Of a DNA stretch of 64,000 nucleotides, positions 1,870 to 23,711 are shown piece after piece. The position numbers and the translations under genes were made by a program. The stretch lies in assembly GCA_050173015.1 (NCBI GenBank), contig JBFXLE010000009.1:103861-167860 (forward strand), given 5' to 3'. Each line of letters starts with the position of its first letter. Within the stretch, counting starts at the first letter, position 1. The notes below the pieces were generated by a model. It saw only the letters and a program-made list of their open reading frames with translations, ran no database searches and had not been told where the DNA came from. Source of the stretch: Calditrichaceae bacterium (GTDB taxonomy: Bacteria; Calditrichota; Calditrichia; Calditrichales; JBFXGD01).

Positions 1870-2182
1870 ACATAAGTATTGTATATAAGTTATAAACCGG
1901 AGGTTTGTCTTTTTGAAGACTCAGGGGTGGAAAGTATTCTGCCACAAGCATAGCAAATATTTTAAAAAAATCAGCTCAAAAAGCAGGAATAACAAAAACG
2001 ATAACGCCGCCTACGCGGCGTTCTTGTTTTGCGACGCGGTTGCTTGCGCAGGGTAGGGATTTAAGGTATATTCAGGAGTAGTTAGGTCAAAATAGTCCCG
2101 GGAAGACTGAACTGCACCCGTTTCGAATAAGTCTATTGATTGAATAAGGAATTCTGTTGATGATATTTTTGAAAAGGATTAG
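1870..2182 (+). pseudogene. Degenerate C-terminal fragment of a tyrosine recombinase (copy 1)
   Basis: Reads YKPEVCLFE..GGKYSATSIANILKKSAQKAGITKTITPPTRRSCFATRLLAQGRDLRYIQE*LGQNSPGKTEL, a decayed TPHxLRHSFATHLLExGxDLRYIQELLGHxSxKTTEIY motif with stop and frameshifts. Confidence 0.85.
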
Positions 2183-2198
2183 TTAATTGTAAAAAAAA

Positions 2199-2265
2199 TA
2201 TATAAACAATGGTTCATACACCGCCAATTTGGGGGGATAAGAACAATGGGATATATACGAACGTT
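2199..2265 (+). other. attI-like recombination site 1
   Basis: 67-bp imperfect palindrome TATATAAACAAT..GTTC...GAACAAT..ATATATACGAAC-GTT. Similarity among the three copies ends at GTT. Confidence 0.7.
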
Positions 2266-2394
2266 ATGGGCAAGGCAATGAAAGAAAACGCAATGGGAGT
2301 AATATTGTCAGGAAATAGAAAGTTGGAGACTAAAAATAGCTAATATAGATGAATGTTTTGAGAAAATAAAAATAGATTCTAAAGAGAAAATATT

Positions 2395-2901
2395 ATGAGT
2401 ATATACACAGATAAAACATATGTTGCTTTTGATGCTGATAATGATATCCACTACTACAGATTGATGCAAGCTTGGAAAAAAAATGATAATTCTTCATTTA
2501 ACTTTTATGATGCTCACGATTTGAATAATTTGATGTCTTGGTCTTCAGAAGAAACAATAAAAGCGAGACTTGCTGAAAGAATGAAAAACTCAAAAGTCTT
2601 TATTTTACTTGTAGGAAATAACACAAAATTTCTATACAAATTTGTTCGATGGGAAATTGATCAAGCTTTAAAAAGAGAAAAACCTATTATAGTTGTTAAC
2701 TTAAATAAAAAGAGAAGCAGGGATACCGAACGATGTCCTGCTATTTTAAATAGTGAATTAGCGGTTCATATAAGTTTTAATCAAAAGATAATTGAATACG
2801 CAATAAATAATTGGCCTAGCTCTGAGGAGTATTACCGTAAGAACAATGAAAAAGGAGATTATTATTACAAAGATTCTGTTTATAAAGAATTAGGAATATG
2901 A
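2395..2901 (+). CDS. thsB: Thoeris ThsB-like TIR-domain protein (cassette 1)
   Basis: YVAFD, NFYDAHD, RLAERMKNSKVFILLVG, FVRWEI (catalytic Glu) typical of DUF1863/ThsB TIR. Confidence 0.85.
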   Translation: MSIYTDKTYVAFDADNDIHYYRLMQAWKKNDNSSFNFYDAHDLNNLMSWSSEETIKARLAERMKNSKVFILLVGNNTKFLYKFVRWEIDQALKREKPIIVVNLNKKRSRDTERCPAILNSELAVHISFNQKIIEYAINNWPSSEEYYRKNNEKGDYYYKDSVYKELGI

Positions 2902-3803
2902 AAATGGGTATTTACAGATGGTTGTCGAAATATAAATCTATCCTTACAGATTTGATGTCTGGTATAGGCCTTTTTTGGCTATTTGTTGAAATAGCAAGTT
3001 ATTCGACAAATGGACAAATTGACAAATACACGAAAAGCATAGCTTTTTTCTTAGTAGGGTTTGTATTAATCATTATTATAGTGCTAATAAAAAATAGGCC
3101 TAGAACATCTTTTTCCTATAAATTACGAGATAAAGATAATTTCATAGAAGTTAAAGTAGGTGATGCTTTTGATAATAATGGAGCTTTAATAATTCCATTC
3201 AATAATTATCTTGATGTATCTCTCGGTGGTAATGTAAAAAAGGCTAATAGTCTGCAAAACAAACTTATAAAACAATATTATTTTGATAAAGAAGAACATT
3301 TAGTTCAAGATATTTTAAAAAAAACAAATCTAACTGCACCATTTGATATTGGTACGACTGTAGAAATTGAACAAAAAGGTAAAAGTTTTTTTCTACTAGT
3401 TAATTCTCATAAAAAAGAAAATAACCGAGTTGTATCGACAGTTGATGACTTCTTATTGAGTTTATCGAAGGTTTGGGATTTCATTGCTTTGGAATCCGGA
3501 AGAAAAAGTATAGTAACAATTCCAATAATAAGTACAAATCACGGCAGAATAACAGACTTAAACAGAATGAATGCGATAAAAGAAATTATTAATAGCTACG
3601 TTGAGGCTTCAAAGTTTCTAAATATTGCAGATAAATTGATAATCAGCATTTTTCCAGACGATATAAATAAAGGAAATATTAAACTTGATGAAGTAGATGA
3701 ATATTTAAAGTTTCAGTGTAATCATTATAGAAAAGTTCATTTTTCACCTAAACTAGAAGGTAAAGAAGTAAGTCCTTCAGTTACAAAGGGTATTAATAAT
3801 TAA
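2898..3803 (+). CDS. thsA: Thoeris type II ThsA-like effector (2 TM helices + Macro-like domain)
   Basis: Two N-terminal hydrophobic helices, then IEVKVGDAF..LIIPFNNYLD and VTIPIIST Macro-like motifs; 4-bp overlap with the TIR gene. Confidence 0.75.
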   Translation: MKMGIYRWLSKYKSILTDLMSGIGLFWLFVEIASYSTNGQIDKYTKSIAFFLVGFVLIIIIVLIKNRPRTSFSYKLRDKDNFIEVKVGDAFDNNGALIIPFNNYLDVSLGGNVKKANSLQNKLIKQYYFDKEEHLVQDILKKTNLTAPFDIGTTVEIEQKGKSFFLLVNSHKKENNRVVSTVDDFLLSLSKVWDFIALESGRKSIVTIPIISTNHGRITDLNRMNAIKEIINSYVEASKFLNIADKLIISIFPDDINKGNIKLDEVDEYLKFQCNHYRKVHFSPKLEGKEVSPSVTKGINN

Positions 3804-3861
3804 TTACAAGAATAATAGGAAATACAATAGGAAATTTTAATTAAGGAAATTAAGAAGCCCA

Positions 3862-3996
3862 GCCCATAACAATGCATATACTTTATGGCGGGTTCCGTTA
3901 TGAAAATGAGTATTTTAGTTTCAAATATAAATCAGTGTGGACAGAAAGATTTGTCTTCCAAAGTCCGCCACAAAGCATATGCTTCCCGTTATGCAC
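3862..3996 (+). repeat. attC-like site 1
   Basis: GCCCATAAC (reverse complement of GTTATGGGC at 2263); arms GCATATACTTTATGGCGG / CCGCCACAAAGCATATGC; GTT at 3988. Confidence 0.85.
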
Positions 3997-4019
3997 AAGC
4001 TAAAAAAAGAATATAGTTA

Positions 4020-4877
4020 ATGATTATAATAAATGACAAGTCAATAGAGAAACTCAGAGACCTGATAAATGAAGAAACTGAATATCGGTCAGGTCCGAAA
4101 CTCATCGAGTTTTTTAAAGACTTGGGCTTCAATGACTCTTATGGTCAAGGATTTCCTTCTCGTTGGAAATATACTGATGATCGCCTTCGCAAAATTAACG
4201 GTAAACCAGAATTAGATAAGTGCATCAGAAAATTATTCAATCCAGTTAATTTCATTGGCAAAACTTCTGAACTTGATAACCACATCAAAAATCTGAATCA
4301 ATATTTAGCTTTTGATAAATGGCAGGTAGTTCGTAATGGTACAGAAATAACTTTCAAAAAGAAAGATAAGGTTGAACTGCATGATGATTATGCAGAACTG
4401 AAAGCAGATGAATTTTTAGATAAAGAATTTGATGATATTTCAATAGATGCTCTAGGTCTTGATTCTATAGTTTCAGAAGTTCTCAAAATTCGTTTTGTAG
4501 AAATAAAGAATTGTTTTGCAGCAAAAGCACATTTGTCGGTCATTTTTCTTTCAGGCAGTAGTCTTGAAGGAATCCTACTAGGAATTGCTTTGAAGTCACC
4601 TACGGAATTCAACCAAGCTAAATCTGCACCTAAAGACAAGGAAGGCAAAGTCAAACAATTTCCTGATTGGACTTTGAGCCAACTAATTGACGTTACGTTT
4701 GAAGTTGGTCTCATCAAGGATGATGTGAAAAAATTTAGTCATGCTCTTCGAGACTTCAGAAACTACATTCACCCATATCAGCAAGTAAGCTCGGGATTTA
4801 ATCCTGATCACCATACAGCAAAAATTTGCTTTCAAGTATTGAAGGCAGGAGTATTTCAACTATCAAAAAACAAATAA
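4020..4877 (+). CDS. Putative abortive-infection protein (AbiJ-like N-terminus, C-terminal HEPN-like RxxxxH) (cassette 2)
   Basis: YRSGPKLIEFF..GFPSRW N-terminal motif; LRDFRNYIHP near the C-terminus. Confidence 0.6.
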   Translation: MIIINDKSIEKLRDLINEETEYRSGPKLIEFFKDLGFNDSYGQGFPSRWKYTDDRLRKINGKPELDKCIRKLFNPVNFIGKTSELDNHIKNLNQYLAFDKWQVVRNGTEITFKKKDKVELHDDYAELKADEFLDKEFDDISIDALGLDSIVSEVLKIRFVEIKNCFAAKAHLSVIFLSGSSLEGILLGIALKSPTEFNQAKSAPKDKEGKVKQFPDWTLSQLIDVTFEVGLIKDDVKKFSHALRDFRNYIHPYQQVSSGFNPDHHTAKICFQVLKAGVFQLSKNK

Positions 4878-5216
4878 ATGGATACTACACAATTTAAAAA
4901 CGGCTATTTCATTGAGAGAGTTTATCAACCAATCTCAGAAACTGAATTCAAGTGTCGACTAATAGTTAAATCAAAGGCGAATAATCAAGAAATTACAGGA
5001 ATAGAGACTAAAATAAATACCGTTGAGATTGGTCAGGGATTAGCAGACTCACAATTTAGCGTTAATCCAATAAGTTGGGAGAGATATTTGAACCAGACAA
5101 TTACAATGTTATTCAACATGTTGATGCTTCGTCTGAATATTACCGACTTGCATAATGTTGACGGAGAAGATAAAATTTCTGAATTCTTTGACGAAAATCC
5201 GTTTCACCAAAATTAA
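4878..5216 (+). CDS. Hypothetical protein (cassette 2)
   Basis: 112-aa ORF abutting the previous stop and ending just before attC-like site 2. Confidence 0.65.
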   Translation: MDTTQFKNGYFIERVYQPISETEFKCRLIVKSKANNQEITGIETKINTVEIGQGLADSQFSVNPISWERYLNQTITMLFNMLMLRLNITDLHNVDGEDKISEFFDENPFHQN

Positions 5217-5224
5217 AAAAGCCA

Positions 5225-5359
5225 GTGCCTAACATCGGCTATAGCAAATGCGGGCTAAAGTGCTATAATGAAAGTAATTACACATAATAAACCAACTGCT
5301 AGTCGGACAAGTAAGTACCTTGAAACCCCGCACTTTCCATAGCCATGACCGTTAGCTGC
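5225..5359 (+). repeat. attC-like site 2
   Basis: GTGCCTAAC (8/9 complementary to GTTATGCAC at 3988); arms GGCTATAGCAAATGCGGG / CCCGCACTTTCCATAGCC; GTT at 5351. Confidence 0.85.
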
Positions 5360-5397
5360 AAGGTTAAGAGCGATACTGCAAAATTGAAAATTAAGAA

Positions 5398-6282
5398 ATG
5401 ATTTTAGACTATTTAAATAAAACATTTAATAACAGAGAAATCGTATTGATTTCCTATTTGACAATTTTCATTATATGGACACTTACACAGAAAAATATTA
5501 GACAGTCCATAGTGTCTGTGATTAAAGCATTTATGGCATGGAAGATACTTGTTTCAATATTTGTGTTGTTACTATATATTGCATTGATTGCTTTTGGATT
5601 ATTTAAAATTGGACTTTGGGATAAATCCATGATTAAAGATACTGTTTATTGGACTTTTGGGGTCGGATTCATTATTATGATGAATTTTGACAAAGCATTG
5701 AAGGAAGAACACTATTTTAAGAACCTTGTCAAAGAAAATTTTAAAGTCCTTATAATCATTGAATTTATAGTTGGAATTTATGTTTTTGGTATCATCACTG
5801 AATTTATTTTAATGCCATTTGTGATTCTATTTTCAATGTTATTAGGATACACTGAAGTTTATAAAGAGCATGGACAAGTTCGCAAATTTTTAAATGGAAT
5901 CTTTGGCATCATAGGTACGATTTATTTAATTTATTCCGGTTATCATATTTACTCTGATTTTACTGGATTTGCAACTCTGGGGAATCTTAAAACATTTTTA
6001 TTCCCTTTAATAATGTTTGTTCTATTTTTACCATTTGCATATTCCTTTGCACTATTGGCTCATTACGAGAGCTTATTCGTTCGATTAGGTTTTTTCCTTA
6101 AAGACAAAAAATTGAGAAGATTCGCTAAGTGGAGAATATTATTGTCAGTAAATTTTAGCATTTTAAGATTAAAACGAATAACACCTGGAATGTTATTTAG
6201 TGACTGTTCTACTAGAGAAGATATAAAAAATGAGATAAAAAATAAAATAAACCCAGCAGCTAACACACAATATAGCCAATAA
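5398..6282 (+). CDS. Polytopic membrane protein of unknown function (cassette 3)
   Basis: About 7 hydrophobic segments; stop codon lies inside attC-like site 3. Confidence 0.75.
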   Translation: MILDYLNKTFNNREIVLISYLTIFIIWTLTQKNIRQSIVSVIKAFMAWKILVSIFVLLLYIALIAFGLFKIGLWDKSMIKDTVYWTFGVGFIIMMNFDKALKEEHYFKNLVKENFKVLIIIEFIVGIYVFGIITEFILMPFVILFSMLLGYTEVYKEHGQVRKFLNGIFGIIGTIYLIYSGYHIYSDFTGFATLGNLKTFLFPLIMFVLFLPFAYSFALLAHYESLFVRLGFFLKDKKLRRFAKWRILLSVNFSILRLKRITPGMLFSDCSTREDIKNEIKNKINPAANTQYSQ

Positions 6283-6394
6283 GGGTTTCAGTGGTATGCA
6301 AAGGGTTGTAGTGTAGCCCGCTCCAACTTTTCGTGTAACTTGATAGGAAATCACCCGCAATCCCTTACTGGCCATATTGTCAAGCGTTAGCTCC
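6256..6394 (+). repeat. attC-like site 3
   Basis: GCAGCTAAC is the reverse complement of GTTAGCTGC at 5351; arms CAATATAGCCAATAAGGG / CCCTTACTGGCCATATTG; GTT at 6386. Confidence 0.85.
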
Positions 6395-6451
6395 AAGGCT
6401 AAAAAATAGAAACAAAAAGAATAAAATATTTGCCAAAAGGATGAAAATAGA

Positions 6452-6630
6452 ACGCCGCCTATGCGGCGTTATTGTTTTGCGACGCGGTTGCTTGCGCAGG
6501 GTACGGATTTAAGATATATTCAGGAGTAGTTATGTCATATTAGTCCCGGGACGACTGAACTGCACACGTCTCAAATAAGTCAATTGATTGAATAAGGAAT
6601 TCTGTTGATGATATTTTTGAAAGGGATTAG
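6452..6630 (+). pseudogene. Tyrosine recombinase C-terminal remnant (copy 2)
   Basis: TPPMRRYCFATRLLAQGTDLRYIQE*LCHISPGTTEL..HVSNKSID*IRNSVDDIFERD*. Confidence 0.85.
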
Positions 6631-6646
6631 TTAATCGTAAAAAAAA

Positions 6647-6713
6647 TATATAAACAATTGTTCATATACCGCTGATTTGGGTGGATAAGAACAATAACAT
6701 ATACACGCACGTT
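6647..6713 (+). other. attI-like site 2
   Basis: Homologous to 2199-2265; GTT at 6711 opens cassette 4. Confidence 0.7.
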
Positions 6714-6735
6714 AGGTTGCATTAAAAAAGAAACC

Positions 6736-7320
6736 ATGAAACTATATCACAGATACAACATAAAGAGAAAACAAGAACATTTATTTTTGGAGTTTATCTT
6801 GAATAATATTCCAGGAATAAATTATTTAAAAGAGAATTATCGTCTTACAGAAAATGAATATGATTCATCAATTGAGATAAAACCCATAATTGATTCATTA
6901 AAAAATGACACTTGGTTACCAAAAAAGCGTAAACAAAATTGCATTGACATTTTACAGGACATTAAACTTAATCATGACAAGGTCGTAGTATTTGAATCGG
7001 TTAATAAAATATCATTTGATTTCACTATTAAAATAGATAGTGACTTGTTTTTCTTTGAATTACACGAAGACCAACACAAGAAGTTAAAAGTAAATAGACA
7101 GTCAAAAATATTTGATATCCAAGGAAATGAAATTTTTGTTCCTCGTTATTTACAAAGATTATTAAAGGATATTTGGCGCTGGGAGAATCTTGACAACTAC
7201 AAGATAATTTGGGCTGACTGGTTTATTTCATCATCAAATAAACTTTCTAACTTGTTGGAAAAAGGAAAAATCGAATACGGAATAGATAATACATTTCAAT
7301 TTAAAAACTTAGGAATATGA
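6736..7320 (+). CDS. Hypothetical protein, possible PD-(D/E)XK / DUF559-like nuclease (cassette 4)
   Basis: SFDF...FFELHEDQH resembles the D..E.xx.xH motif of very-short-patch-type nucleases. Confidence 0.5.
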   Translation: MKLYHRYNIKRKQEHLFLEFILNNIPGINYLKENYRLTENEYDSSIEIKPIIDSLKNDTWLPKKRKQNCIDILQDIKLNHDKVVVFESVNKISFDFTIKIDSDLFFFELHEDQHKKLKVNRQSKIFDIQGNEIFVPRYLQRLLKDIWRWENLDNYKIIWADWFISSSNKLSNLLEKGKIEYGIDNTFQFKNLGI

Positions 7321-7984
7321 ATATTGAAGAATTGGAACAAAAGATTGCGAAACTTAGAAACGAAATAAAAAAGGATACTCTAGAACTTGAGAATGTTCCC
7401 GAAAGATTTATTTCAGTAATCAAAGGAGAACTGAAAACAAAAGAAGGTAGATTAATTGATTTGGAGTTAAAACTGGATGATTTAATTGAAAATGGAATTA
7501 CTGATAGGCTGCAAAAGCCAATTGATGAATTACAAGAGAAAATTAAATCGTTTATTCTTGATTATCAATTTCAATATCCACAGGACAAAGAAATGTTTAT
7601 CTATCAAATTGCATTTGAAGAAAATGATGATGAACTCTTGATAAGCTTAAAACCAAAGGAAAAAACCACAAATCGATTGAACAAATACAACAAGGATTTA
7701 CTAAAAGTTACAATAGAGAACAAAGTAATACAAGAACCAAAAGCTACTGACCTTTTATTAAGACTTTAAAGCACTTTTCAATTAAAAAAGTTAAATCACT
7801 TGACCTTGTATTCTTAGGAGTTCCCTTAATCGCTGAATATAGCCATGACAAATATCAATAGAAACAAATATCAAACAACCTTTTCGTTTTGACTCAGATT
7901 TCCAAAGATAAAAAGAAAGAAATTCTTGAATATATTGCAGAAAAATTCAATCAGAGTATAAAAATCGAATTTGTGAAGAAATAA
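7317..7984 (+). pseudogene. Disrupted gene (coiled-coil N-terminus, broken C-terminal domain) (cassette 4)
   Basis: ORF stops at 7769, but a shifted frame continues KHFSIKKVKSLDLVFLGVPLIAEYSHDKYQ*KQISNNLFVLTQISKDKKKEILEYIAEKFNQSIKIEFVKK* up to the attC-like site. Confidence 0.6.
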
Positions 7985-7985
7985 C

Positions 7986-8122
7986 GCAACCTAGCACGCA
8001 ATAAAAAACATAGGGCAGAAAGTGCAAAAATTGAACGACATAACATTTAATAAACGACTTGGTAACTTGACAGGGAAGTGCTTCGAAATGCCAAACGTTT
8101 CATATACGTAACCGATAGCGTT
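7986..8122 (+). repeat. attC-like site 4 (both cores mutated)
   Basis: GCAACCTAGC vs expected GCAACCTAAC; GATAGCGTT at 8114 vs expected GTTAGCGTT. Confidence 0.75.
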
Positions 8123-8200
8123 CATTGTAAGGAGACAAAACAACCGTCAGAATAATTATGGTATTTTTGCTGCATGAAGAAAAAAGAAAATATGGAAATA

Positions 8201-8290
8201 GCCACCGCACAAATGGCATATTTGGTTTTTGCCGACGCACAGCCAAACGCTGAAAAAACCAAAAGAGCCATTTCTTGCCATCTCACGACT
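8201..8290 (+). repeat. ACA/AGA internal-loop hairpin element E1
   Basis: AAATGGC-ATA-TTTGGTTTTT...AAAAACCAAA-AGA-GCCATTT. Confidence 0.7.
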
Positions 8291-8303
8291 GAAAGATAAT
8301 GAT

Positions 8304-11150
8304 ATGACAACATATAAAAATCAAAATCCTGAACAAATAGCCAGAGACAAAATTGACAAAATGTTAATTGAAGCTGGTTGGATTGTTCAATCTAAAAATG
8401 AAGTTGACTTGGGTGCAGGCAGAGGTGTTGCGTTGAGAGAATACCAAACGGAAACAAAATTTGCGGATTATGTGCTGTTTGTTGACAAAAACCCTGTTGG
8501 AATTATTGAGGCAAAAAAAGAAGACGAAGGACATAAACTAACCGTAGCGGAAGACCAAGCCTCTGAATATGCCAAAGCAAAACTAAAATATTTGGATAAC
8601 GACCCATTGCCTTTTGTTTTTGAGAGTACCGGAACAATAACCCGTTTTAGAGATACACGAGACCCAAAACCAAGAGGGCGACATATTTTTTGGTTTTACC
8701 GTCCCGAAACATTGGCGGAATGGCTACAAAAAGATAAAAGTTTAAGAGGTAGATTATTAGATATTCCGCAATTAAATGAGACTGGGCTTCGCCCTGCTCA
8801 AATTAAGGCGATTAATAACCTTGAACAATCTTTTAAAAAGAACAAGCCAAAAGCTTTAATACAAATGGCTACCGGAGCAGGTAAAACTTTTACTGCCTGT
8901 ACTTTTGTGTATCGCTTATTGGAACACGCCAAAGCCAAACGGATTTTATTTTTGGTTGACACCAAAAACTTAGGAGAACAAGCAGAACAGGAGTTTATGG
9001 CTTTTCAGCCCAACGACAGCAATCGCAAATTCACAGAATTGTATAATGTACAGCGTCTTACTTCAAGCTACATAGCAAGCGATAGTCAGGTTTGTATCTC
9101 TACCATTCAACGGATGTATGCCATTTTAAAAGGTGAAGAACTAGACGAAGGAGCCGAAGATACAAACCCGAACGAATCGACCTGGATGGAACAACAGCGA
9201 AATAAAAAACAGGCAATGCCTGTGGAATATTCTGCCAAAGTACCCATTGAACAATTCGATTTTATTGTAATTGATGAATGCCACCGCTCTATTTACAATC
9301 TTTGGAAACAAGTGTTGGATTATTTCGATGCTTTCCTTATCGGCTTAACTGCCACACCCGATAAGCGAACTTTTGGCTTTTTTGAGGAAAATGTAGTGAG
9401 CGAATATACCTATGAAGAATCTGTGTTGGATGGTGTAAATGTTCCTTACGATGTGTACAATATTGAAACTGAAATTTCGCAAAAAGGCAGTGTGATAAAA
9501 GCAGGTTGGTTTGTGGACAGACGAGATAAGCTCACCCGAAAAACGCGTTGGCAACAAGAAGATGAAGACACCGAATATTTGAAAAACGATTTGGATAAAA
9601 AGGTCGTTAATCCAAGCCAGATACGGAATATTATTCGCCAATACAAAAAAGCATTGGAAACCGAAATTTTCCCGAACAGAAAAGACGAAAATGGAGAATA
9701 CGAAGTTCCTAAAACACTGGTTTTTGCAAAAACTGACAGCCACGCGGATGATATAATCAAAATCATTCGTAAAGAATTTGACGAAGGCGATGATTTCTGC
9801 AAAAAACTGACTTATAAAATAAAAGAAGACCCAAAATCGGTGTTAAACCGTTTTCGGAATTCATATCATCCCCGCATTGCGGTTACGGTAGATATGATTG
9901 CAACGGGAACCGATGTAAAACCTTTGGAAGTGTTGTTGTTTATGCGTGATGTTAAAAGCACCAACTACTTTGAACAAATGAAGGGTAGAGGAACACGCAC
10001 CATTAACAAAGATGCTTTTCAGGCAAACAACACCAATGTAAAAGGGGCTTGCAAAACCCATTTTATTATTGTGGATGCAGTTGGCGTAACAAAGTCGAAG
10101 AAAACCGACAGCCGGCCTTTGGAACGCAAACCAACTGTAGCCTTAAAAGATTTATTGGGAGCGGTAACAATGGGAGTTACCGAAGAAGATTTGTTTCTTT
10201 CGCTTGCAAATCGTTTGATACGATTAGAAAAAGAAATTACCGACAAGGAAAAAGATAAATTACTGGAACATTCCAAAGGCAAAAATCTGAAACAAATCAG
10301 CAAAGAATTATTATCGGCTTTTGATAAAGATGAAATTGAAAACAGAGCACAGGAAAAAATTGAAAAATTCTGTAAAGACGCCCTACAGGGCGTCTCTTCT
10401 GCTGCCGATTTATCTCCGGCACAAATAGAATCTTTCCGACAGGACGCACAGAAAGAATTGATTAATACCGCCGCTTCTACTTTTAACGGAAAGCTGAACG
10501 ATTATATTGAAAAAGTGCGTATGGAACACGAGCAAATTATCGACAGCCACAATATCGACACCGTAACAAAATCGGAATGGGACACCGCTTCGGTGGATAA
10601 AGCCAAAGAAACTGTAAAAGATTTTAACGAATACCTCGAAGCCAATCAGGACGAGATAAAAGCATTGACCATTTTTTACAAACAACCCTACAACCGCCGA
10701 AACATTACCTTTAAAATGATTAAAGATGTGTTTGATAAACTGAAATTGGATAAACCCACCCTTGCCCCCGATTATGTTTGGGCGGCATACAGCCAATTGG
10801 AAGAGGTAAAAAGCAAACAACCGATTGACGAACTCACCGCGTTAATTTCGTTAATTCGCAGGGCTTGCGGAATTGACAGCGAGTTGAAAGCTTTTGATTC
10901 CACCATTGACGAAAATTTCAAAAACTGGATTTTCAAACAAAACGCAGGCAAGCACAACCGCTTTACAACCGAACAAATGGACTGGCTGCGAGAACTGAAA
11001 AATCACGTAGTAAATTCGTATCACATAGAAATTGAAGACCTCGATTATACACCCTTTGATGAAAAAGGAGGACGTGGCAAAATGTACCAACTCTTTGGTG
11101 CCGAAATGAACGATATTATTAATGAACTTAACGAGGTATTAGCAGCATAA
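8304..11150 (+). CDS. hsdR: Type I restriction endonuclease subunit R (EcoEI/EcoAI-like)
   Basis: ADYVL..IIEAK nuclease motif, MATGAGKT Walker A, DECH, TAT, QMKGRGTR; EcoEI-type C-terminus. ATG 8304 preferred over TTG 8229, which lies inside repeat E1. Confidence 0.92.
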   Translation: MTTYKNQNPEQIARDKIDKMLIEAGWIVQSKNEVDLGAGRGVALREYQTETKFADYVLFVDKNPVGIIEAKKEDEGHKLTVAEDQASEYAKAKLKYLDNDPLPFVFESTGTITRFRDTRDPKPRGRHIFWFYRPETLAEWLQKDKSLRGRLLDIPQLNETGLRPAQIKAINNLEQSFKKNKPKALIQMATGAGKTFTACTFVYRLLEHAKAKRILFLVDTKNLGEQAEQEFMAFQPNDSNRKFTELYNVQRLTSSYIASDSQVCISTIQRMYAILKGEELDEGAEDTNPNESTWMEQQRNKKQAMPVEYSAKVPIEQFDFIVIDECHRSIYNLWKQVLDYFDAFLIGLTATPDKRTFGFFEENVVSEYTYEESVLDGVNVPYDVYNIETEISQKGSVIKAGWFVDRRDKLTRKTRWQQEDEDTEYLKNDLDKKVVNPSQIRNIIRQYKKALETEIFPNRKDENGEYEVPKTLVFAKTDSHADDIIKIIRKEFDEGDDFCKKLTYKIKEDPKSVLNRFRNSYHPRIAVTVDMIATGTDVKPLEVLLFMRDVKSTNYFEQMKGRGTRTINKDAFQANNTNVKGACKTHFIIVDAVGVTKSKKTDSRPLERKPTVALKDLLGAVTMGVTEEDLFLSLANRLIRLEKEITDKEKDKLLEHSKGKNLKQISKELLSAFDKDEIENRAQEKIEKFCKDALQGVSSAADLSPAQIESFRQDAQKELINTAASTFNGKLNDYIEKVRMEHEQIIDSHNIDTVTKSEWDTASVDKAKETVKDFNEYLEANQDEIKALTIFYKQPYNRRNITFKMIKDVFDKLKLDKPTLAPDYVWAAYSQLEEVKSKQPIDELTALISLIRRACGIDSELKAFDSTIDENFKNWIFKQNAGKHNRFTTEQMDWLRELKNHVVNSYHIEIEDLDYTPFDEKGGRGKMYQLFGAEMNDIINELNEVLAA
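10372..10399 (+). repeat. REP-like palindrome inside hsdR
   Basis: GTAAAGACGCCCTACAGGGCGTCTCTTC, a variant of the GTAGAGACGCCC-n-GGGCGTCTCTAC palindrome. Confidence 0.65.
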
Positions 11151-14988: not shown

Positions 14989-14989
14989 G

Positions 14990-15080: not shown

Positions 15081-15130
15081 GAGAATGCAGCAAAAATGAA
15101 AGATAAATTGGCTGGAAAAATAAACAACGA

Positions 15131-15263: not shown

Positions 15264-15320
15264 AAGCCTAAAAAATAGAAACAACAAGAATAAAATATTT
15301 GCCAAAAGGATGAAAATAGA

Positions 15321-15501: not shown

Positions 15502-15517
15502 ATAATTGTAAAAGAAA

Positions 15518-15584
15518 TATATAAACAATTGTTCATACACCGCCAATTTGGGCGGATAAGAACAATAGAATATATACGAACGTT
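15518..15584 (+). other. attI-like site 3
   Basis: TATATAAACAATTGTTCATACACCGCCAATTTGGGCGGATAAGAACAATAGAATATATACGAACGTT; GTT at 15582. Confidence 0.7.
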
Positions 15585-15624
15585 GTGTGGCATTAGAAGT
15601 AACTTACATAAAAAAGGGTGACTT

Positions 15625-16621: not shown

Positions 16622-16622
16622 C

Positions 16623-16759
16623 GCCACACAACAAAAAATATAGTGCATTTGGCAGATGGTGCTAAAAATGAAAATGATTGCAATAAATGAACATAGTAGT
16701 AAATTGAAAGCTTGGAGCGTTGAAATGCCAAACGCACCATATTCAAACCGTTGTATGCC
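16623..16759 (+). repeat. attC-like site 6
   Basis: GCCACACAAC is the reverse complement of GTTGTGTGGC at 15582; arms AATATAGTGCATTTGGCA / TGCCAAACGCACCATATT; GTT at 16750. Confidence 0.85.
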
Positions 16760-16777
16760 ATGCTGGAAACGAGCTAA

Positions 16778-16865
16778 CCGCACAAATAGCACATTTGGTT
16801 ATTGCTGACACAAAAGCAAAGGCTGAAAAACTAAAAGAGCTATTTTATTGTCAAACGCACATAGA
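16778..16865 (+). repeat. ACA/AGA hairpin element E3
   Basis: AAATAGC-ACA-TTTGGTT...AACTAAA-AGA-GCTATTT. Confidence 0.7.
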
Positions 16866-16877
16866 CTAAAACTAAAA

Positions 16878-19800
16878 ATGAATGAAGAAATAGTATCAGC
16901 AAGTGGAGAAAGAGCAGCAATGGGAGGCTATTTGCCTCAATTTGATGAGTTCGCTTGGTTTGTCTATTTGAATCTAATAAATAAAAAGCTTGAATGGATA
17001 CGAATAGCAGACTCCAAGGCTGAAAAACTAGATGATATACAGTATTCTACTCATTCAGAAATTCATGCATACCAAGTAAAATGGACTATCGCTGATGCAA
17101 ATATATCATTTGCAAATTTTACGGATTTGTTTCCTCTTATCACCTCTAGTTGGAAGAGTTTAAAAACAGCTAATCCTAGCAAAAAAATAATTCCTCATTT
17201 AATCACTAACAAACCTATTTCCTCCCACGACAGCTTAAAGGTAGGCGATACAAAAATCGGTTCATTTCAAGACTTCGTCTCAGAAGTTTGGGTAAAGCTA
17301 AAATCAAATCAATCAATTGATGATAAGTGGAAACAAGTTCTTGAGGAACTCAAAAAGAGTTCAAAACTCAATGATTCTGAATTTGGAGAATTTATCATCT
17401 CTTTTGATTTTCAACCAGACTATAAACAAAAACAGTTTAGTATAGGAAATATTAAATACTCTAAAGAAGACGAAGACCTTCAACAGATCAGTCGATATAT
17501 AGTACAAAAAGTTGCTAGCCCGAAAAGAGTCGTTGAATTTACTCGCCAAGAAATTATTAAAGAATTAGGTTGGTCTGATAGATTTAAAACAATTTTTAAT
17601 CACGAGTTAATAGTCGATAGACAAAGATACCAGCCGATTCAATCGACAATTGACCTGTTAAATTCAAAGTTAGAGGAGCATAAAAATGGATACCTGTTTT
17701 TGCTAGGTGGCCCAGGTTCTGGAAAATCTACCTTATTGAATCAATGGTCAAAAGGCCTTAAAACACGAATAATACGATACTACGCCTTTGATTTCGTTAA
17801 TCCATCTTCACACTTAAACTTTTATGAAAGAGGAAATGCTACCCATCTTTTTTTCGATTTAGTTTTTCAATTAAAGGAAGCTGGAATATATAAAAGAGAC
17901 ATTCTTCCATATAAAGACTTACTTTTTCTAAAAGATGTATTCAATGAGCAATTAAGTGCAATTGGAGAGGACTTTGTGACAAATGGTCAATCGACCATAA
18001 TATTGATTGATGGTCTAGATCATGTTCCTAGGGAATACAAATCAACAACTAATAGTTTCCTACGAGAACTTCCTTTACCATCTTCTCTCCCAAACGGGGT
18101 CTTCATCATTTTAGGTAGTCAATCTTATGAACTTGAAGACATTCAACAGGAAATTAAAACTGAATTTCAGAAAGGAAATAGAACCATTCAAATTGATCCA
18201 CTTAAAAAGGAGGAAGTATACAAGTACATTGATAATCTTGATACTTCAATTCAACTTAATGGTTCTCAAAAGCTGCAAATATTTGAGAAATCAGAAGGAC
18301 ACCCGTTATACCTGTCATACTTAATTGAAAAAATCAATAACGCAGATTCTATTAACGATACAATCGAATCTTTTGAAGTTATTGATGGTAGTATTGATAA
18401 TTATTACAAAAAAATATGGGAGCCTATCCAGAAAGAAGATAGCCAAATTCAATTCTTAGGTTTAATTGCGAGAATTAATGGTTTGATCAAACTTCAGTTC
18501 ATTCAGGAATGGGACTTCCAACCGAGTGTTTTAAAGTCCTTTCGTGAAAAGGCCAGATTTCTGTTTAATGAAACCGAAAAAACTTTGTCTTTCTTTCATA
18601 ATTCGTTCAAGCAATTCCTTCTTCATCATACCTCTTTAAATTACTTAACAGATGAGTTTGATCCGACAATTAACGTCAATTATCATAGTCAACTTACTGA
18701 TTATTATGTAAAATCAGAGATTGAAAAATCCTGGAAACAGAATCATCACCTATTTCAGGCTAAACAATATGATAAGTTTATTTCAGAAGTTACCCCAAAT
18801 AGTATTACTGAACAGTTACTTAACTTCAGACCAGCAGAAGAAATTAAGCAGGATGCAAAATTGGGAGTTGAAATAGCAAGACAGAATAAGGACATTAATA
18901 CTCTGGTAAGATATCTGTTTTCATTAGCAGAAATTGAAAGAAGATTATTCAATATTGATCCCACATCCTTTATAGAAGAACTTTTGTACCTAAATAAATA
19001 CGACTTAGCAAGGGATTATCTAAGAACTGGCAACACCCTCCATTGTAGCGAATCGTACGCATTTAAAGCATGTCGATTGTTTATTGAATCTGGGCACAAA
19101 TCAGAAGGAGCAACTTTATACAATTTGGCTTATCCAGAAATCATTACAGATTCCGGGATACATATTGATGATTCTCACAGATATGAAGAAATAAGAGATT
19201 CTTTAGAAGAATGGATTTATACTTCTCCCTATTTTGAAGCAACCGAGAATATTTTCTCAATAATTGAGAAAATTCAATTCTCAGGTAGCATACGGAAAAA
19301 CAGGTTTGAAGAAGAAGAATCTGATTTACTTTTAAGGTTACTCTCTAATCTTGGTTATAGTTTAGTGGATCAAAACAAGTGGGATGATTTTAATAAAGTC
19401 ATAGAAAAAATAGATTCGAGGTCTTCAAGAGGAAGGAATTCTCTTTTCCAACTTATAAAGTACGCTATCGAGCAATGCCTTGACTTAAAAGATAGTAGTC
19501 GAGTGAATGAATATCTGTCATTTTTAACCACTCATTTCACAAAAGAGAAGACAAAATCCATTGGCAAAATATTCATTGCAGATTTAGTCTATAAAGTCAC
19601 TAGAGACCTAAATGAAACATATAGTTGGATTAAGGAAGTTGAGCAACCATCTAATGTGGGTAAAGACCAGCTAGGATATGATGATTCGTTAGACGCCTTT
19701 CTTCCATTAATCAAACTTAACAAGTTACTTAACCTATGTGGAAAAGGAGTTTCGATTACGTCTGCAATTCCATCTGTTGCGAAAGGTACTGATGAAGAAG

Positions 19801-22800
19801 TTTTAGTGGAGTTTGAACGAATGTTATGTATTACCACTCAAATTCTAGCCGAGGGCATTCTTCAAACACCAATGCCAGGTGATCCTATTAAAAGAGTATT
19901 TCCAATTGTTCGGTTTTATTACAAAGAAATATCCCACCGAAACAGCTATTGGTATAAGCTGACACAAGCAAAAGGCCAATATTATGATTTTTTGATTTCG
20001 GCGGTGTCTGAATTGGGTACTGAAAAATTAGAATTATTAGGAGATTATTTGTTCAGTGAGTTTAAGAATATTCCAAAATATTGGAGTACAAGTGTCCAGC
20101 GGAAAATCATTAAATCCCTCTTGAATAAAGGGTTTAATGCTAAAAAAGCAGTAATAAAGTTGAGATCCATAGAGGATTCCATGTTGGAAGGTCACGATAT
20201 AGATGGCCGTATAACCGAATGCTTGGCCCACTCAAAAGTATGGTTCATTTTAGGCAAGCTAGATGAAGGTGAAATATGGCTCAAACAGGCTATTCAAGAA
20301 TCTATTGGAGTAGGATATAGAAAAGATTATCAATTTAGTACATGGATTGAATGGTTAAGAAAAATAAACCATAAAGACCCATCAAAAGCTACTGAAAGAA
20401 TAAAGTGGTTCTTATCTCATTTAAAACATATTAAAGAAACCACGGAGGGAAGGGCTTATTGGAATGCTTCTGAAGAATTATTAGAAGTCGCATATGAACA
20501 CAATCTGGAAGATGGCTTAGAGCAGGCTATTTGGCAATTAAAGAACGATCTAATAGACTTTAAAGATTCAATTGCTCTTTTCATAAAATATTTTATGATA
20601 AAAACAAAAAGTAAAGAAGAGTTCAAAAGTATTGTTCAACTATATAGTGATTTATATCTGCTTCTTGCTGAATCTGCCAATTCTTCCCTGCTCAAATCTA
20701 TCTTAGAAAAAGGGCATGAAATTTTAAAAGAAGATTTTTTAGTAGAACATGCTCAAGCCATTATTTCGGCAATAGAAATTAAAGCTTACGAAGAAACCAG
20801 ACATTACTTACTATCTGAAATTGATAACTTCTATACATCAAAAGGGCTAAAAGCAGAAGACTATTATTCACGGTTTAATATACCGGCAAAAAGCGAAAGA
20901 AATAGTTCATCAACATCTTCTAACACATTGACTTTAAAGACAGATCATGAAAAGATTGATGAAAGTGAAGTACTAAAACGAGTTACAAATTTTGAAGATT
21001 TCAAAAAAATCATTCAAGAAGAAGATCAGGCAAATTCATTTTTTAATTGGTCAAAGGTTATAGATAAAATAGCTCCATTATTGTCTTCAAGTCAAATTGA
21101 AGAAATCACCAAACTGGCTAGAATAGGAAGGAGAGAGTCAGATTTCTATGCTAAATTAAGTGAGGCTGCCTTGGAGCTAGAAAACACAGAACTCGCAACT
21201 AGTTTAGCCAATAAAAGTATTGAGTTATCGAGCGAATCGGGGTGGGTAAAATATTATGATGGAGGAACAAGAATCAATGCATTTAATGCACTAAAACGAA
21301 TCAATCCTGCAATATCATCTAATAAGGCATTTGAAGTATTTGCTCATGATATAGTAACCAGTAATTATCCAAGTTCATATATCGAACATCTTGAAGACAT
21401 CGTTCCACTTTTAACAGAAAATTATGTTGAGGAAGAGCTTTGGCATGAAATATATGGTTACCTGCAAAGACTGATGTCGAATAGTAAACCGGTTGAGGAT
21501 TTACCTGTTCTTCCATCATTAAATCGTCCAATCATAGAAACCTTAGTCGATTATATGGTGTATTTATCACAGAGTCCCGTCTCAATAATAAAGGAGCAAT
21601 CTTTACAGCTATTGGCAAAATATATAAATCAAGATAATGACTATGCTTTGACTCAATTACTGAATGGACGTTTAGATGATTACTCAAGTATGAACGTGAT
21701 GATGAAATTAACTGCGTTCAACTCCCCCAAAGTCCATTTGCTTAAATCAAAGATCAATAGTTTAGCTATATCAAATGACTATCAATTAAGAGAAAGCTCA
21801 AAACAAATACTTTCCTCAATTCAAGAAGAAATTCCAACTCCCAAAAACATCGAATTATCTAAAGTATACTCTTTCCATATTCCAGAAACTGAAAAACCAG
21901 ATTTTAGAAAAGAGATTGACCCTTATTTCCCAGAAGTTGATACTAATGACCCCCGTGATCTGATACGACCATTTGAATTTTTAATCAAAATCTTATCTGA
22001 GGAGTCTGGGATTAATGAATCTAACCTTATATATAGAGCCTACTCGATCATGAAAGAAATTGGTCGAGAGGAGGAATGGTCCGTTGAGTATGAAAAAAAG
22101 CTTAGAAATCATTTAGAAGAAATTTACCTAAGATACTCTTACCCTAGACCAAGGGTAATTGCGGCTCGAAGAGCCATAATGCATGTCACCAATGAATTAA
22201 TAGATTCTGGAACAATTGATGATGAGCGAATTCAGAAACCTTTTATATCACATGATTATGCGGTTCTGTTTTTTAATGAAATAGCAAAACCTGAATTCAT
22301 TCAAACTATTAAAGAGAGAGATTTTGGAGGAGTTGGCAATGATTGGTTAGATCGAATAGGTGAATCAGAAAGATTAAACGAATCAATATTAGACTATAAT
22401 GATAACTTCAAGATTATTGCAGAATATAATCAAGTTAAAAATTTAGATTGGGGTTCTCCTACTGAAGAATACATGTACCAAATTGCGGTTAATGAGGAGT
22501 TGGATGAAGAAGATAATTACATTTTTGGCTCTGTTTTTCACCAATTAAGCAGTAACTATCATGATTTGAGAAGTGGTGGACATTTTATTGTTGTAGTCAG
22601 GGATCATAGATTTGACCAATTTGATCTGAAATCTAAGTGGATTGCAATTAACCCTGTTTTGGCTAGATACTTAGGATGGGAGCCTGAAACAACCAAATTA
22701 TTTGCTTGGAAAAACTCGCAAGGTGAATTGATGGCGGAATCAATTTATTGGTCAAATGGAAATATTAACATGACACCTCGTAAGGATGGAGAAGTCGGGG

Positions 22801-22949
22801 AAGGGTGGTTTGTTATTGTTTCCAAAGATGGATTAGAGAAGATAAAATCTATCGAGAAGAAATTGTTTCTGCAAAAGAAATTAACAAGATCTAAATTTGA
22901 AGATTCAGTTCTAATGAATAATCAAGCAATTAGTGTGACAAAAATTTGA
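16878..22949 (+). CDS. Large nuclease-STAND NTPase, Avs (AVAST)-like anti-phage protein (cassette 7)
   Basis: N-terminal GERAAMGGYxxQ..LDD..YQVK (Cap4/PD-(D/E)XK-like); GGPGSGKST Walker A; ILIDGLDH Walker B; long helical C-terminal region. ATG 16878 preferred. Confidence 0.75.
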   Translation: MNEEIVSASGERAAMGGYLPQFDEFAWFVYLNLINKKLEWIRIADSKAEKLDDIQYSTHSEIHAYQVKWTIADANISFANFTDLFPLITSSWKSLKTANPSKKIIPHLITNKPISSHDSLKVGDTKIGSFQDFVSEVWVKLKSNQSIDDKWKQVLEELKKSSKLNDSEFGEFIISFDFQPDYKQKQFSIGNIKYSKEDEDLQQISRYIVQKVASPKRVVEFTRQEIIKELGWSDRFKTIFNHELIVDRQRYQPIQSTIDLLNSKLEEHKNGYLFLLGGPGSGKSTLLNQWSKGLKTRIIRYYAFDFVNPSSHLNFYERGNATHLFFDLVFQLKEAGIYKRDILPYKDLLFLKDVFNEQLSAIGEDFVTNGQSTIILIDGLDHVPREYKSTTNSFLRELPLPSSLPNGVFIILGSQSYELEDIQQEIKTEFQKGNRTIQIDPLKKEEVYKYIDNLDTSIQLNGSQKLQIFEKSEGHPLYLSYLIEKINNADSINDTIESFEVIDGSIDNYYKKIWEPIQKEDSQIQFLGLIARINGLIKLQFIQEWDFQPSVLKSFREKARFLFNETEKTLSFFHNSFKQFLLHHTSLNYLTDEFDPTINVNYHSQLTDYYVKSEIEKSWKQNHHLFQAKQYDKFISEVTPNSITEQLLNFRPAEEIKQDAKLGVEIARQNKDINTLVRYLFSLAEIERRLFNIDPTSFIEELLYLNKYDLARDYLRTGNTLHCSESYAFKACRLFIESGHKSEGATLYNLAYPEIITDSGIHIDDSHRYEEIRDSLEEWIYTSPYFEATENIFSIIEKIQFSGSIRKNRFEEEESDLLLRLLSNLGYSLVDQNKWDDFNKVIEKIDSRSSRGRNSLFQLIKYAIEQCLDLKDSSRVNEYLSFLTTHFTKEKTKSIGKIFIADLVYKVTRDLNETYSWIKEVEQPSNVGKDQLGYDDSLDAFLPLIKLNKLLNLCGKGVSITSAIPSVAKGTDEEVLVEFERMLCITTQILAEGILQTPMPGDPIKRVFPIVRFYYKEISHRNSYWYKLTQAKGQYYDFLISAVSELGTEKLELLGDYLFSEFKNIPKYWSTSVQRKIIKSLLNKGFNAKKAVIKLRSIEDSMLEGHDIDGRITECLAHSKVWFILGKLDEGEIWLKQAIQESIGVGYRKDYQFSTWIEWLRKINHKDPSKATERIKWFLSHLKHIKETTEGRAYWNASEELLEVAYEHNLEDGLEQAIWQLKNDLIDFKDSIALFIKYFMIKTKSKEEFKSIVQLYSDLYLLLAESANSSLLKSILEKGHEILKEDFLVEHAQAIISAIEIKAYEETRHYLLSEIDNFYTSKGLKAEDYYSRFNIPAKSERNSSSTSSNTLTLKTDHEKIDESEVLKRVTNFEDFKKIIQEEDQANSFFNWSKVIDKIAPLLSSSQIEEITKLARIGRRESDFYAKLSEAALELENTELATSLANKSIELSSESGWVKYYDGGTRINAFNALKRINPAISSNKAFEVFAHDIVTSNYPSSYIEHLEDIVPLLTENYVEEELWHEIYGYLQRLMSNSKPVEDLPVLPSLNRPIIETLVDYMVYLSQSPVSIIKEQSLQLLAKYINQDNDYALTQLLNGRLDDYSSMNVMMKLTAFNSPKVHLLKSKINSLAISNDYQLRESSKQILSSIQEEIPTPKNIELSKVYSFHIPETEKPDFRKEIDPYFPEVDTNDPRDLIRPFEFLIKILSEESGINESNLIYRAYSIMKEIGREEEWSVEYEKKLRNHLEEIYLRYSYPRPRVIAARRAIMHVTNELIDSGTIDDERIQKPFISHDYAVLFFNEIAKPEFIQTIKERDFGGVGNDWLDRIGESERLNESILDYNDNFKIIAEYNQVKNLDWGSPTEEYMYQIAVNEELDEEDNYIFGSVFHQLSSNYHDLRSGGHFIVVVRDHRFDQFDLKSKWIAINPVLARYLGWEPETTKLFAWKNSQGELMAESIYWSNGNINMTPRKDGEVGEGWFVIVSKDGLEKIKSIEKKLFLQKKLTRSKFEDSVLMNNQAISVTKI

Positions 22950-22964
22950 CCATGAATCCAAACG

Positions 22965-23050
22965 CTCGCATCCATACACATTGGCAAATCGCACAGGACA
23001 GCCACACCAGCCAAAATTTGCCAAAGAGTATGGCTGCACCAACGCCGCCA
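22965..23050 (+). repeat. ACA/AGA hairpin element E4
   Basis: CCATAC-ACA-TTGGCAAAT...ATTTGCCAA-AGA-GTATGG. Confidence 0.7.
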
Positions 23051-23072
23051 GAAAAGAAAATGAAAAAGCACG

Positions 23073-23199
23073 GGCATACAACAATGTGTATAATTCATAA
23101 GGGTTTCAGCGGATTGCAAGCCGTATCACCCGCATCAAATTCGGGTGGTAACTTGATAAGTAAAAAGTTCGCAATCCCTTACGAATCATAGTTAGCTCC
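23073..23199 (+). repeat. attC-like site 7 (right spacer deleted)
   Basis: GGCATACAAC is the reverse complement of GTTGTATGCC at 16750; CATA directly abuts GTT at 23191 (8-9 nt spacer in the other sites). Confidence 0.8.
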
Positions 23200-23257
23200 A
23201 AGGCTAAAAAATAGAAACAAAAAGAATAAAATGTTTGCCAAAAGAATAGAAATAAAA

Positions 23258-23345
23258 GCCACCGCACAGTAAGCACATTTGCAATTCGCGCGAGCCGGCG
23301 CGAAAACCAAAAATTGCAAAAGATTGCAATCTTGCCGGCGCGTGA
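23258..23345 (+). repeat. ACA/AGA hairpin element E5 in the terminal, gene-less cassette stub
   Basis: GC-ACA-TTTGCAATTCGCGCGAGCC...AATTGCAAA-AGA, close to E2. Confidence 0.65.
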
Positions 23346-23711
23346 CTGAATACGAATAGAAAACTATATAATTTGGAATTGAACTAATGAAATTATCACC
23401 CGCGCGATTAGAGAACTTGATCCCGGAATTTATCGGATATCTTATCCGTTAAGTATAAATAATATCGAAATTATAACTGTACGACATAACACTTTTATCA
23501 GAAACAGATCCTAAAAAATAAATCAAAGGCGATACAACAACACAATCAAGGTAACAAAAAAGCGGTTACTGTAGATTGTCTCCCTATTATTACACACCGT
23601 GGTAGATCATCAGAAACCCGACAAGCGCCGGACGCCGGTTTTTTGCGCCAAAACGTGGAGGTGATACCTTATGCAAAAAACGATTTTAAAAAATAGTACA
23701 GGATTTAAACT

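Follow-up and report, generated by a model that had tools for sequence, protein, structure and literature searches.

A probable integron-type cassette array of a distinct, Xer-like recombinase lineage in a Calditrichaceae bacterium

Sedentary chromosomal integrons (such as the Vibrio superintegron) and attC-site clusters without an integron integrase (CALINs) are the described systems closest to a cassette array at 1.9-23.3 kb in a 64,000-nucleotide stretch of DNA, hereafter the window, from a Calditrichaceae bacterium (GenBank assembly GCA_050173015.1, contig JBFXLE010000009.1, positions 103,861 to 167,860). These systems and the window share tandem, co-oriented cassettes that each end in an imperfect AAC...GTT hairpin, a crossover at G|TT, an attI site beside the recombinase gene, homogeneous recombination sites and diverse cargo that includes anti-phage systems; with CALINs, the window also shares an array devoid of an intact integrase. 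The lineage represented by the window differs from sedentary integrons in its enzyme, which lacks the IntI insertion, scores below the TIGR02249 cut-off and is encoded by a gene co-oriented with the cassettes, and in its sites, which feature three conserved G·T wobbles, an 18-bp L stem and no conserved extrahelical bases. The window itself departs further from these integrons in containing two 6-7-kb multigene cassettes bracketed by extra hairpins and three internal attI copies.

In CTX-type integrative mobile elements exploiting Xer (IMEX), XerCD integrates folded single-stranded phage DNA, a process that relies on the host dif site and host XerCD. The likeness to the window lineage lies in an Xer-type enzyme without the I2 helix and in a hairpin-folded single strand, and single-strand exchange with replicative resolution is plausible here as well; however, AAC/GTT cores are absent from IMEX, which neither form a cassette array nor have an attI next to a dedicated recombinase. 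The enzymes of the so-called reverse or inverted integrons of Spirochaetota are IntI proteins with the additional domain, which is absent from the enzyme of the window lineage. The location of the integrase gene on the cassette strand, as described for these Spirochaetota integrons by Ghaly et al. 2022 (10.1101/2022.02.06.479319), is a shared feature. Sequence derived from attI inside a cassette array is described for the ΔattI-type cassettes of mobile integrons (PMC12901181); in the window, each internal copy comes with part of the recombinase gene and with the old right flank (F65, see below), which points to duplication of the whole platform and not to attI x attC hybrid sites.

The IntI-specific domain is considered to define integron integrases and to be required for attC recombination (10.1101/2022.02.06.479319; PMC8138268). 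The evolution of integrons from an Xer-like ancestor has been proposed by Escudero et al. 2016, who also allude to XerCD integration of folded single-stranded phage DNA (PMC4792948). IntegronFinder is reported to detect few integrons in Bacteroidetes (10.1101/2022.02.28.482270), and chromosomal integrons have been described to carry defence cassettes (Darracq et al. 2024 preprint, 10.1101/2024.07.02.601686). A literature search, whose scope did not extend to subscription journals and supplementary files, turned up no account of an integron system that lacks the insertion.

The segment at 1.9-23.3 kb is best explained, with a probability of about 0.85, as a chromosomal integron-type cassette array of a distinct lineage that possesses an insertion-less Xer/IntI-like recombinase of ~278 aa. 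This reading is carried by direct observations on the structure and covariation of the sites, the permutation of cassette boundaries, the linkage of the sites to the short recombinase, the restriction of homology to a single cassette, and the presence or absence of the island. An earlier note on this DNA had termed the array non-canonical, and the term is apt: the linked recombinase is devoid of the IntI insertion, and the sites are unlike the classical attC that accompany canonical IntI genes of this class.

Cassette boundaries and attC-like hairpins

The earlier note had pointed to seven segments that each start with a GTT-initiated word whose reverse complement follows the last gene. A direct check located all 14 words where they had been placed (start/inverse core: 2263/3862, 3988/5225, 5351/6256, 6711/7986, 8114/15131, 15582/16623 and 16750/23073), each reverse complement lying after the last open reading frame (ORF) of its segment. 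Complementarity along the window amounts to 9/9, 8/9, 9/9, 9/10, 8/9, 10/10 and 10/10; four of the seven pairs are perfect reverse complements and three carry a single mismatch. Two of these mismatches fall inside the triplet (GAT at 8114, and ...TAGC instead of ...TAAC at 7986), and the third lies just beyond it (GTGCCTAAC at 5225 versus GTTATGCAC at 3988). Two more GTT-bounded units, at 6387-6711 and 15256-15582, had been overlooked, and each consists of a recombinase remnant and an attI-like element.

The circular-permutation rule of integrons, in which the start of a cassette is the complement of its own inverse core and the crossover lies at G|TT, is followed by all seven window cassettes. 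Outside the window, the rule was scored by comparing the 7 nt after the GTT of one site (n-1) with the 7 nt before the AAC of the next (n), and 47 of 65 consecutive-site pairs proved complementary at no fewer than six of the seven positions. The mean of these pairs is 5.57/7, against 2.64 for same-site and 2.32 for random pairs in a 107-site control; nine low-scoring pairs, mostly widely spaced, may conceal missed sites. The window pairs are near-perfect and far above this chance level of ~2.3-2.6/7. Together with the attC-like hairpins described below, the pairs inside and outside the window bear out the reading of the units as circularly permuted cassettes that meet at G|TT.

The ~130-nt hairpins that link each inverse core to the next core had been left undescribed. 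They are imperfect inverted repeats of ~128-140 nt, present at all seven window junctions on the forward strand. A covariance model (R1), built from eight sites of this genome (seven from the window and one from contig C5), was used for the detection of such sites in place of a hand-written hairpin scanner, which was dropped because it returned ~3 false matches per 64 kb of shuffled sequence. The sites are attC1 (3862-3996; R1 score 116.7 bits), attC2 (5225-5359; 125.6 bits), attC3 (6256-6394), attC4 (7986-8122; 111 bits), attC5 (15131-15263; 113 bits), attC6 (16623-16759; 121.5 bits) and attC7 (23073-23199; 97.9 bits). Among them, attC4 has degenerate cores (AGC/GAT), attC5 folds poorly, and attC7 is shortened by the loss of ~9 nt.

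The bottom strand is the better folder in six of the seven window sites, owing to the G·T wobbles, and its consensus comprises a 6-bp R stem, an asymmetric internal loop of 4-5/2 nt and an 18-bp L stem. Compensatory changes are seen at 13 of 24 pairs when the seven window sites are aligned with the one from contig C5, and at 19 of 24 in 96 distinct sites from 34 loci, a value that none of 500 shuffles reached; 93.4% of the cells in these 96 sites are paired. The three G·T wobbles are near-invariant (92/96, 87/96 and 94/96 distinct sites). In the underlying alignment of 98 R1-type sites (96 distinct), the L stem is bulge-free in 67 and has a single T bulge in 22, and conserved extrahelical bases were not found. 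The imperfect R''-L''...L'-R' hairpin with AAC/GTT cores and favoured bottom-strand folding, by which integron attC sites are recognised, is thereby present. A subclass of ~200-nt sites with a terminal region of 120-140 nt makes up 19 of the 98 sites; it is dominant in Maribacter arrays (L086 and L099) and occurs in others too. Furthermore, site pairs of identical score lie 3630 bp apart at 11870-16470 of a Melioribacteraceae locus, L032 (11870/15500 and 12633/16263), which suggests a recent tandem duplication in that array.

According to the proposed mechanism, cassettes would have entered as circles, a resident GTT (of attI or attC) being joined at G|TT to the cassette's own ~130-nt hairpin. 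The bottom strand would fold as single-stranded DNA, and its cleavage chemistry and replicative resolution are postulated. The G·T wobbles may signal the choice of strand, replacing both the extrahelical bases and the IntI insertion. In this lineage the recombinase gene occupies the cassette strand and attI sits ~90 nt beyond the stop codon; cassettes would be expressed from the attI-proximal region.

The short recombinase and its attI

The genome (97.5% complete, 54 contigs) contains three intact PF00589 genes, and the array-type recombinase is represented only by remnants. Within the window, a ~325-bp unit is present three times (ending at 2263, 6711 and 15582), each copy comprising the 3' end of a recombinase gene with in-frame stops, a conserved element of ~85 bp and then the cassette-starting GTT. 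The remnant translations follow the form ...CFATRLLAQG(R/T)DLRYIQE*. Remnant 1 (1917-2147, forward strand) covers the last ~77 codons, contains an internal TAG and aligns to the C-terminus of an intact 278-aa relative; the corresponding PF00589 match, with two stops, lies at C9:105768-105962. It is followed by attI-like element 1 (2183-2265, forward strand; crossover G|TT at 2263), which is conserved in 12 of 60 relatives and whose post-GTT word pairs with the R'' of cassette 1. Further remnant-plus-attI copies in this genome occur on contig C5 and, as an orphan, on contig C43 (2469-2688).

The other two window copies are located in forward-strand linkers that begin with a 65-bp sequence, F65, starting TTAGCTCC. 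Linker A (6387-6711) consists of F65 (6387-6452), recombinase remnant 2 (6449-6595) and attI-like element 2 with G|TT at 6711, and harbours the repeat families D1-D4; linker B (15256-15582) consists of F65 (15256-15321), remnant 3 (15318-15458) and attI-like element 3 with G|TT at 15582. A cassette is present at the G|TT of each of the three attI copies. A further F65 copy comes after the final attC, at 23192, within an element termed F (23192-23342, forward strand) in which F65 (23192-23257) precedes a solitary IR-B hairpin (23261-23342); F is for this reason best read as the presumed original right half of attI. Tandem triplication seems the simplest history, as a reconstruction: an ancestral unit of remnant, left half of attI, cassettes and right half of attI (F65) would have been triplicated, after which different cassettes would have entered each attI copy. 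The unit junction falls in a short microhomology (GCCNCCGC). Blocks 2 and 3 did not arise by divergence of one duplicated set of cassettes, since their small gene pairs are unrelated.

In a Calditrichaceae relative the gene is intact, encodes 278 aa and ends ~90 nt ahead of the conserved element and GTT. The enzyme scores 238.7 bits against NF040815 (XerA type), above the cut-off of 220, and 214.3 bits, in two stretches, against TIGR02249 (integron integrase), below the cut-off of 265. Alignment to the structure of VchIntIA (PDB 2a3v) reveals that ~44 residues are absent at the IntI-specific segment (chain residues 181->245, query 180->201), that is, the additional domain or I2 helix near patch III is absent in the short recombinase; its best solved relatives are the XerA-type enzymes 4a8e and 5hxy. 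The missing protein insertion goes together with the missing conserved extrahelical bases of the sites.

The family comprises 7996 proteins at E <= 1e-20, of which the best 120 are 74-100% identical and, in the few named cases, belong to Hippea, Desulfothermus, Deferribacteraceae and bacteria of the Fibrobacteres-Chlorobi-Bacteroidetes (FCB) group. Scanning one genome per species yielded 79 recombinase loci (1.03 Mb), which span Calditrichota, Ignavibacteriota, many Bacteroidota families, Neomarinimicrobiota, Spirochaetaceae, Campylobacteraceae and others. Cultured carriers among these loci include Maribellus sediminis, Maribacter huludaoensis and Marinilabilia salmonicolor. Some Bacteroidota genomes contain several copies (L077, L078 and L093 stem from one assembly). 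Certain Bacteroidota recombinases (L053, L073, L086, L087 and L099) bear an N-terminal extension of ~100 aa or more before the SAM-like domain; assignment of this extension to the HARP domain was rejected, as it relied on a single sub-threshold Pfam match in one of the five (24.7 bits, cut-off 25). Among the 34 loci analysed for attI, 27 score at least 6/7, and 18 of these have their crossover 77-132 nt behind the gene, with ATATA...TATAC(N4-6)G|TT leading up to it; an attI beside the recombinase gene serves as the insertion point, as in integrons. An attI palindrome was discarded as a universal hairpin, being significant in 12 of 24 loci with modest covariation.

In this genome, R1 matches only the seven window sites and five on contig C5, directly behind another remnant, four of which were outside the training set. 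The C5 array (153649-163464) lies behind a remnant and attI and includes ORFs of 248, 421, 594, 481 and 271 aa. Across the 79 recombinase loci, R1 has 116 matches, all on the strand predicted from the gene; 96 of 100 exactly placed sites are downstream of it, and a site is present in 31 of the 41 loci whose downstream sequence measures 1.5 kb or more.

These relationships bear on the alternative that survives best, although it is improbable, namely an ordinary CALIN formed by orphan cassettes of a canonical IntI integron, with the Xer-like remnants as incidental neighbours. Integrons have identical AAC/GTT cores and follow this crossover rule too, and canonical IntI genes, far above the TIGR02249 cut-off, are frequent in the class (41 of 81 genomes). 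However, a single clear R1 match occurs around 23 canonical-intI loci (249 kb), and the arrays at such loci, found by the boundary rule alone, have 75-100-nt sites of classical design, whose L stem shows two single-base bulges, and run divergently from intI. The R1 matches in short-recombinase loci are without exception co-oriented with the gene, each of the window's three attI copies is joined to a remnant of the short gene, and the TIGR02249 scan of the 81 class genomes found no canonical IntI in this genome or in a same-genus genome (G001). Since canonical IntI with classical attC occurs in half of the class genomes scanned, two integron types coexist in the class (canonical loci L106-L131), each with its own site design.

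Slightly less probable still is movement of the cassettes by host XerC/XerD-like enzymes, as in IMEX and pdif modules, which would render a dedicated short recombinase dispensable. The genome does retain two intact Xer-like genes (302 and 315 aa), the short enzyme is itself Xer-like by its NF040815 score, and a phage site folded from single-stranded DNA is a known substrate of XerCD. Nevertheless, the sites are hairpins of ~128 nt with GTT/AAC cores and not 28-bp dif-like sequences, and a dedicated recombinase heads the arrays in the 31 of 41 suitable loci mentioned above. In a quick tree, the short recombinases form their own clade (SH-aLRT 88), canonical IntI of the same class forms a separate one (99), and the host's two Xer-like proteins fall outside both. 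Unlike a single housekeeping Xer copy, the short recombinase heads cassette arrays and belongs to a patchy clade that crosses phyla (no dif site was sought).

Mobility and present state of the array

Homologues of the cassette 3 protein, 77-91% identical, are present in seven metagenome contigs, whose DNA similarity to the window is confined to 5349-6388. In five of these contigs the similarity begins no more than 2 nt away from the G|TT at 5351; in the sixth it begins 6 nt into the cassette and in the seventh mid-gene. It ends at the R'' of the cassette, except in one contig, where the end falls on the G|TT at 6386. The homologues are flanked by R1 sites, and their neighbours have no similarity to the window. 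The earlier note had listed cargo homologues elsewhere without the GTT..AAC bounds among the findings that would refute its reading; for cassette 3 the outcome favours that reading, as the homology ends at the cassette boundaries amid different neighbours. No homologue of this protein was found in 85 other genomes of the class.

The least probable explanation, and a very unlikely one, is that the hairpins are intergenic repeats (repetitive extragenic palindromes (REP) or miniature inverted-repeat transposable elements (MITE)), terminators or RNA elements bordering genes in a defence island built by homologous recombination: blocks 2 and 3 share non-coding scaffolds, the array has tandem repeats, and cassette 5 contains true REP-like palindromes and a RAYT-like gene, but this explanation predicts neither the circular-permutation rule (47/65 pairs) nor the end of cassette 3 homology ~2 nt or less from G|TT in other contigs, nor the strict relation of strand and position to the recombinase gene and the conserved AAC/GTT cores, and Rfam has no match across window positions 1-26000.

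Genome G001, of the same genus, has homologues of window 1-1840 (86.6% identical) and 25606-26563 (85.6%) that are separated by ~130 bp, and the intervening segment of 23.8 kb (1841-25605) is therefore accessory. This island, not present in G001, comprises the array, a VWA-domain gene (23712-25109) and a gene for a 140-aa membrane protein. The latter two, within 23345-25605, follow F and its solitary IR-B and have no attC; they may be an old cassette or may belong to the flank that the platform had originally.

Several points weigh against the interpretation as an integron-type array of a distinct lineage. An intact cognate recombinase was not found in the 54 contigs of this genome, although one could lie in a gap, and degeneracy affects three of the seven window sites (attC4, attC5 and attC7). 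What ties the recombinase to the sites is adjacency and orientation, not activity, and canonical IntI could act in trans. The large site alignment (A4) was fitted to the covariance model, which favours the pairing counts, with slid-partner controls far lower. The tree is quick and unfinished and leaves the deep order of the short clade, IntI and Xer unsettled. The triplication is ambiguous in that an integrated circle with the same junction would produce an identical map. Finally, no recombination was observed, and neither a clean excision nor a circle junction was seen in contigs assembled from sequencing runs.

Three candidate joints and one gap in coverage by such contigs were set aside. 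The joint 6449→15008 arises because the end of the array itself (F65 plus trailer) maps to paralogous copies; the joints 8114→15145 and 8142→15123 (run X3), with 21-27 nt on their sides, are too short to be reliable; and a gap at 17341-21999 with a loose end at 15082 (run X5) has no bridging contig and hence does not constitute evidence. The description of the array as a shufflable immune library finds no support in its present state: with stops in the recombinase remnants and no intact cognate gene in this genome, GAT/AGC cores at attC4, ~9 nt missing from attC7 and a poorly folding attC5, the array looks immobile in cis and appears to be a fossil, not a demonstrably active library.

Cargo, hairpin brackets and wider meaning

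All seven cassettes are read from the forward strand. Cassette 1 (2264-3988) encodes Thoeris, with thsB at 2395-2901 (Pfam ThsB_TIR, 2.3e-21; PADLOC ThsB, 1e-73) and thsA-Macro at 2898-3803 (ThsA_Macro, 8.2e-28; PADLOC ThsA (Macro), 1.7e-39), which together make up the Thoeris pair. Cassette 5 (8115-15255; 7.1 kb) contains a complete type I restriction-modification (R-M) system, composed of hsdR (8229-11150; ResIII and EcoEI_R_C), hsdS (11150-12688; Methylase_S) and hsdM (13468-14988; N6_Mtase and HsdM_N). Between hsdS and hsdM lies a RAYT-like ORF (12841-13452) that scores 59.9 bits against NF047646 REP_Tyr_transpos, below the cut-off of 80, and REP-like palindromes occur at 11738-11767, 12740-12769 and 13168-13197, one of them within the 512-aa hsdS ORF. 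Cassette 7 (16751-23191; 6.4 kb) encodes a 2033-aa NACHT/STAND Avs-like protein (16848-22949; Pfam NACHT, 2.7e-6) whose PADLOC match to Avs1b (2.4e-39) covers the NTPase region only (residues 269-597 of 2033).

Cassette 2 (3989-5351) contains ORFs of 285 and 112 aa without a Pfam or NCBIfam family, the 285-aa protein having a weak PADLOC match to Stk2-N (5e-10) and a weak atlas lead to AbiJ_NTD5/DUF4145. For cassettes 3 (5352-6386; a 294-aa ORF), 4 (6712-8114; 194 and 150 aa) and 6 (15583-16750; 195 and 139 aa), no family was found in profile searches of Pfam, PADLOC and NCBIfam. Defence cargo is thus confirmed in three of the seven cassettes and four are without recognised function. The earlier assignments of Thoeris, type I R-M and an Avs-like STAND protein are upheld by Pfam and PADLOC, the last in its NTPase region; the HEPN motif is not, the AbiJ_NTD5/DUF4145 lead being all that relates to it.

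The 47 cassettes verified in relatives range from 404 to 3387 bp (median 937 bp), and 33 of them hold one forward ORF. Their cargo, scanned for 48 of 53 cassette ORFs, is diverse and includes three beta-lactamase-family genes, toxin-antitoxin parts, methyltransferases and 'Integron Cassette Protein Hfx_Cass5', as well as the defence families NsnA/B, PDC-S01/S15, GmrSD, AbiZ and AriA (a tally of families, not of proteins).

The two large cassettes are distinguished by a second hairpin of ~75 nt, IR-B, just inside each end of their cargo. Its forward-strand copies are found at 8204-8285 and 14994-15074 in cassette 5, at 16777-16855 and 22964-23046 in cassette 7, and, as a solitary fifth copy, after F65 in element F. 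Compensatory changes occur at 11 of 20 pairs in the five window copies, and IR-B has no Rfam match. Its model, R2, has matches in 10 of 80 relatives and, in other phyla, at 10 places within recombinase loci; every one of them is on the cassette strand, and the majority lie close behind a recombinase gene or adjoin an R1 site. The first cassette of locus L052 has the same layout: attI G|TTAGCTGC, IR-B (11069-11149), three large ORFs, IR-B (17009-17092) and R'' GCAGCTAAC, the bracketed cargo being PbeC/DndD-like and DndE/HerA-like. All three IR-B-bracketed cargos examined are defence systems; solitary IR-B copies occur too. The hairpin could act as transcript leader and trailer, or as a nested site.

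On odds tilted modestly in its favour, the array belongs to a second integron lineage without the IntI insertion, in which an Xer-like recombinase is used and G·T wobbles stand in for extrahelical bases in marking the active strand. This lineage would be widespread in the FCB group, in which integrons are regarded as rare, would exist alongside canonical integrons in Calditrichia and may represent the Xer-like precursor state that has long been postulated for integrons, and IR-B could be an adapter that turns big operons into cassettes. What the window itself adds is a fossil state, three attI copies in one array, and defence cassettes of 6-7 kb with a recurrent hairpin bracket. If the interpretation is correct, the IntI-specific domain would not be required for cassette capture, and the origin of integrons from an Xer-like ancestor, as proposed in PMC4792948, would become directly testable. 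It would also mean that a large pool of cassettes, with defence, beta-lactamase-family and toxin-antitoxin genes, exists in phyla for which standard searches report few integrons (10.1101/2022.02.28.482270).

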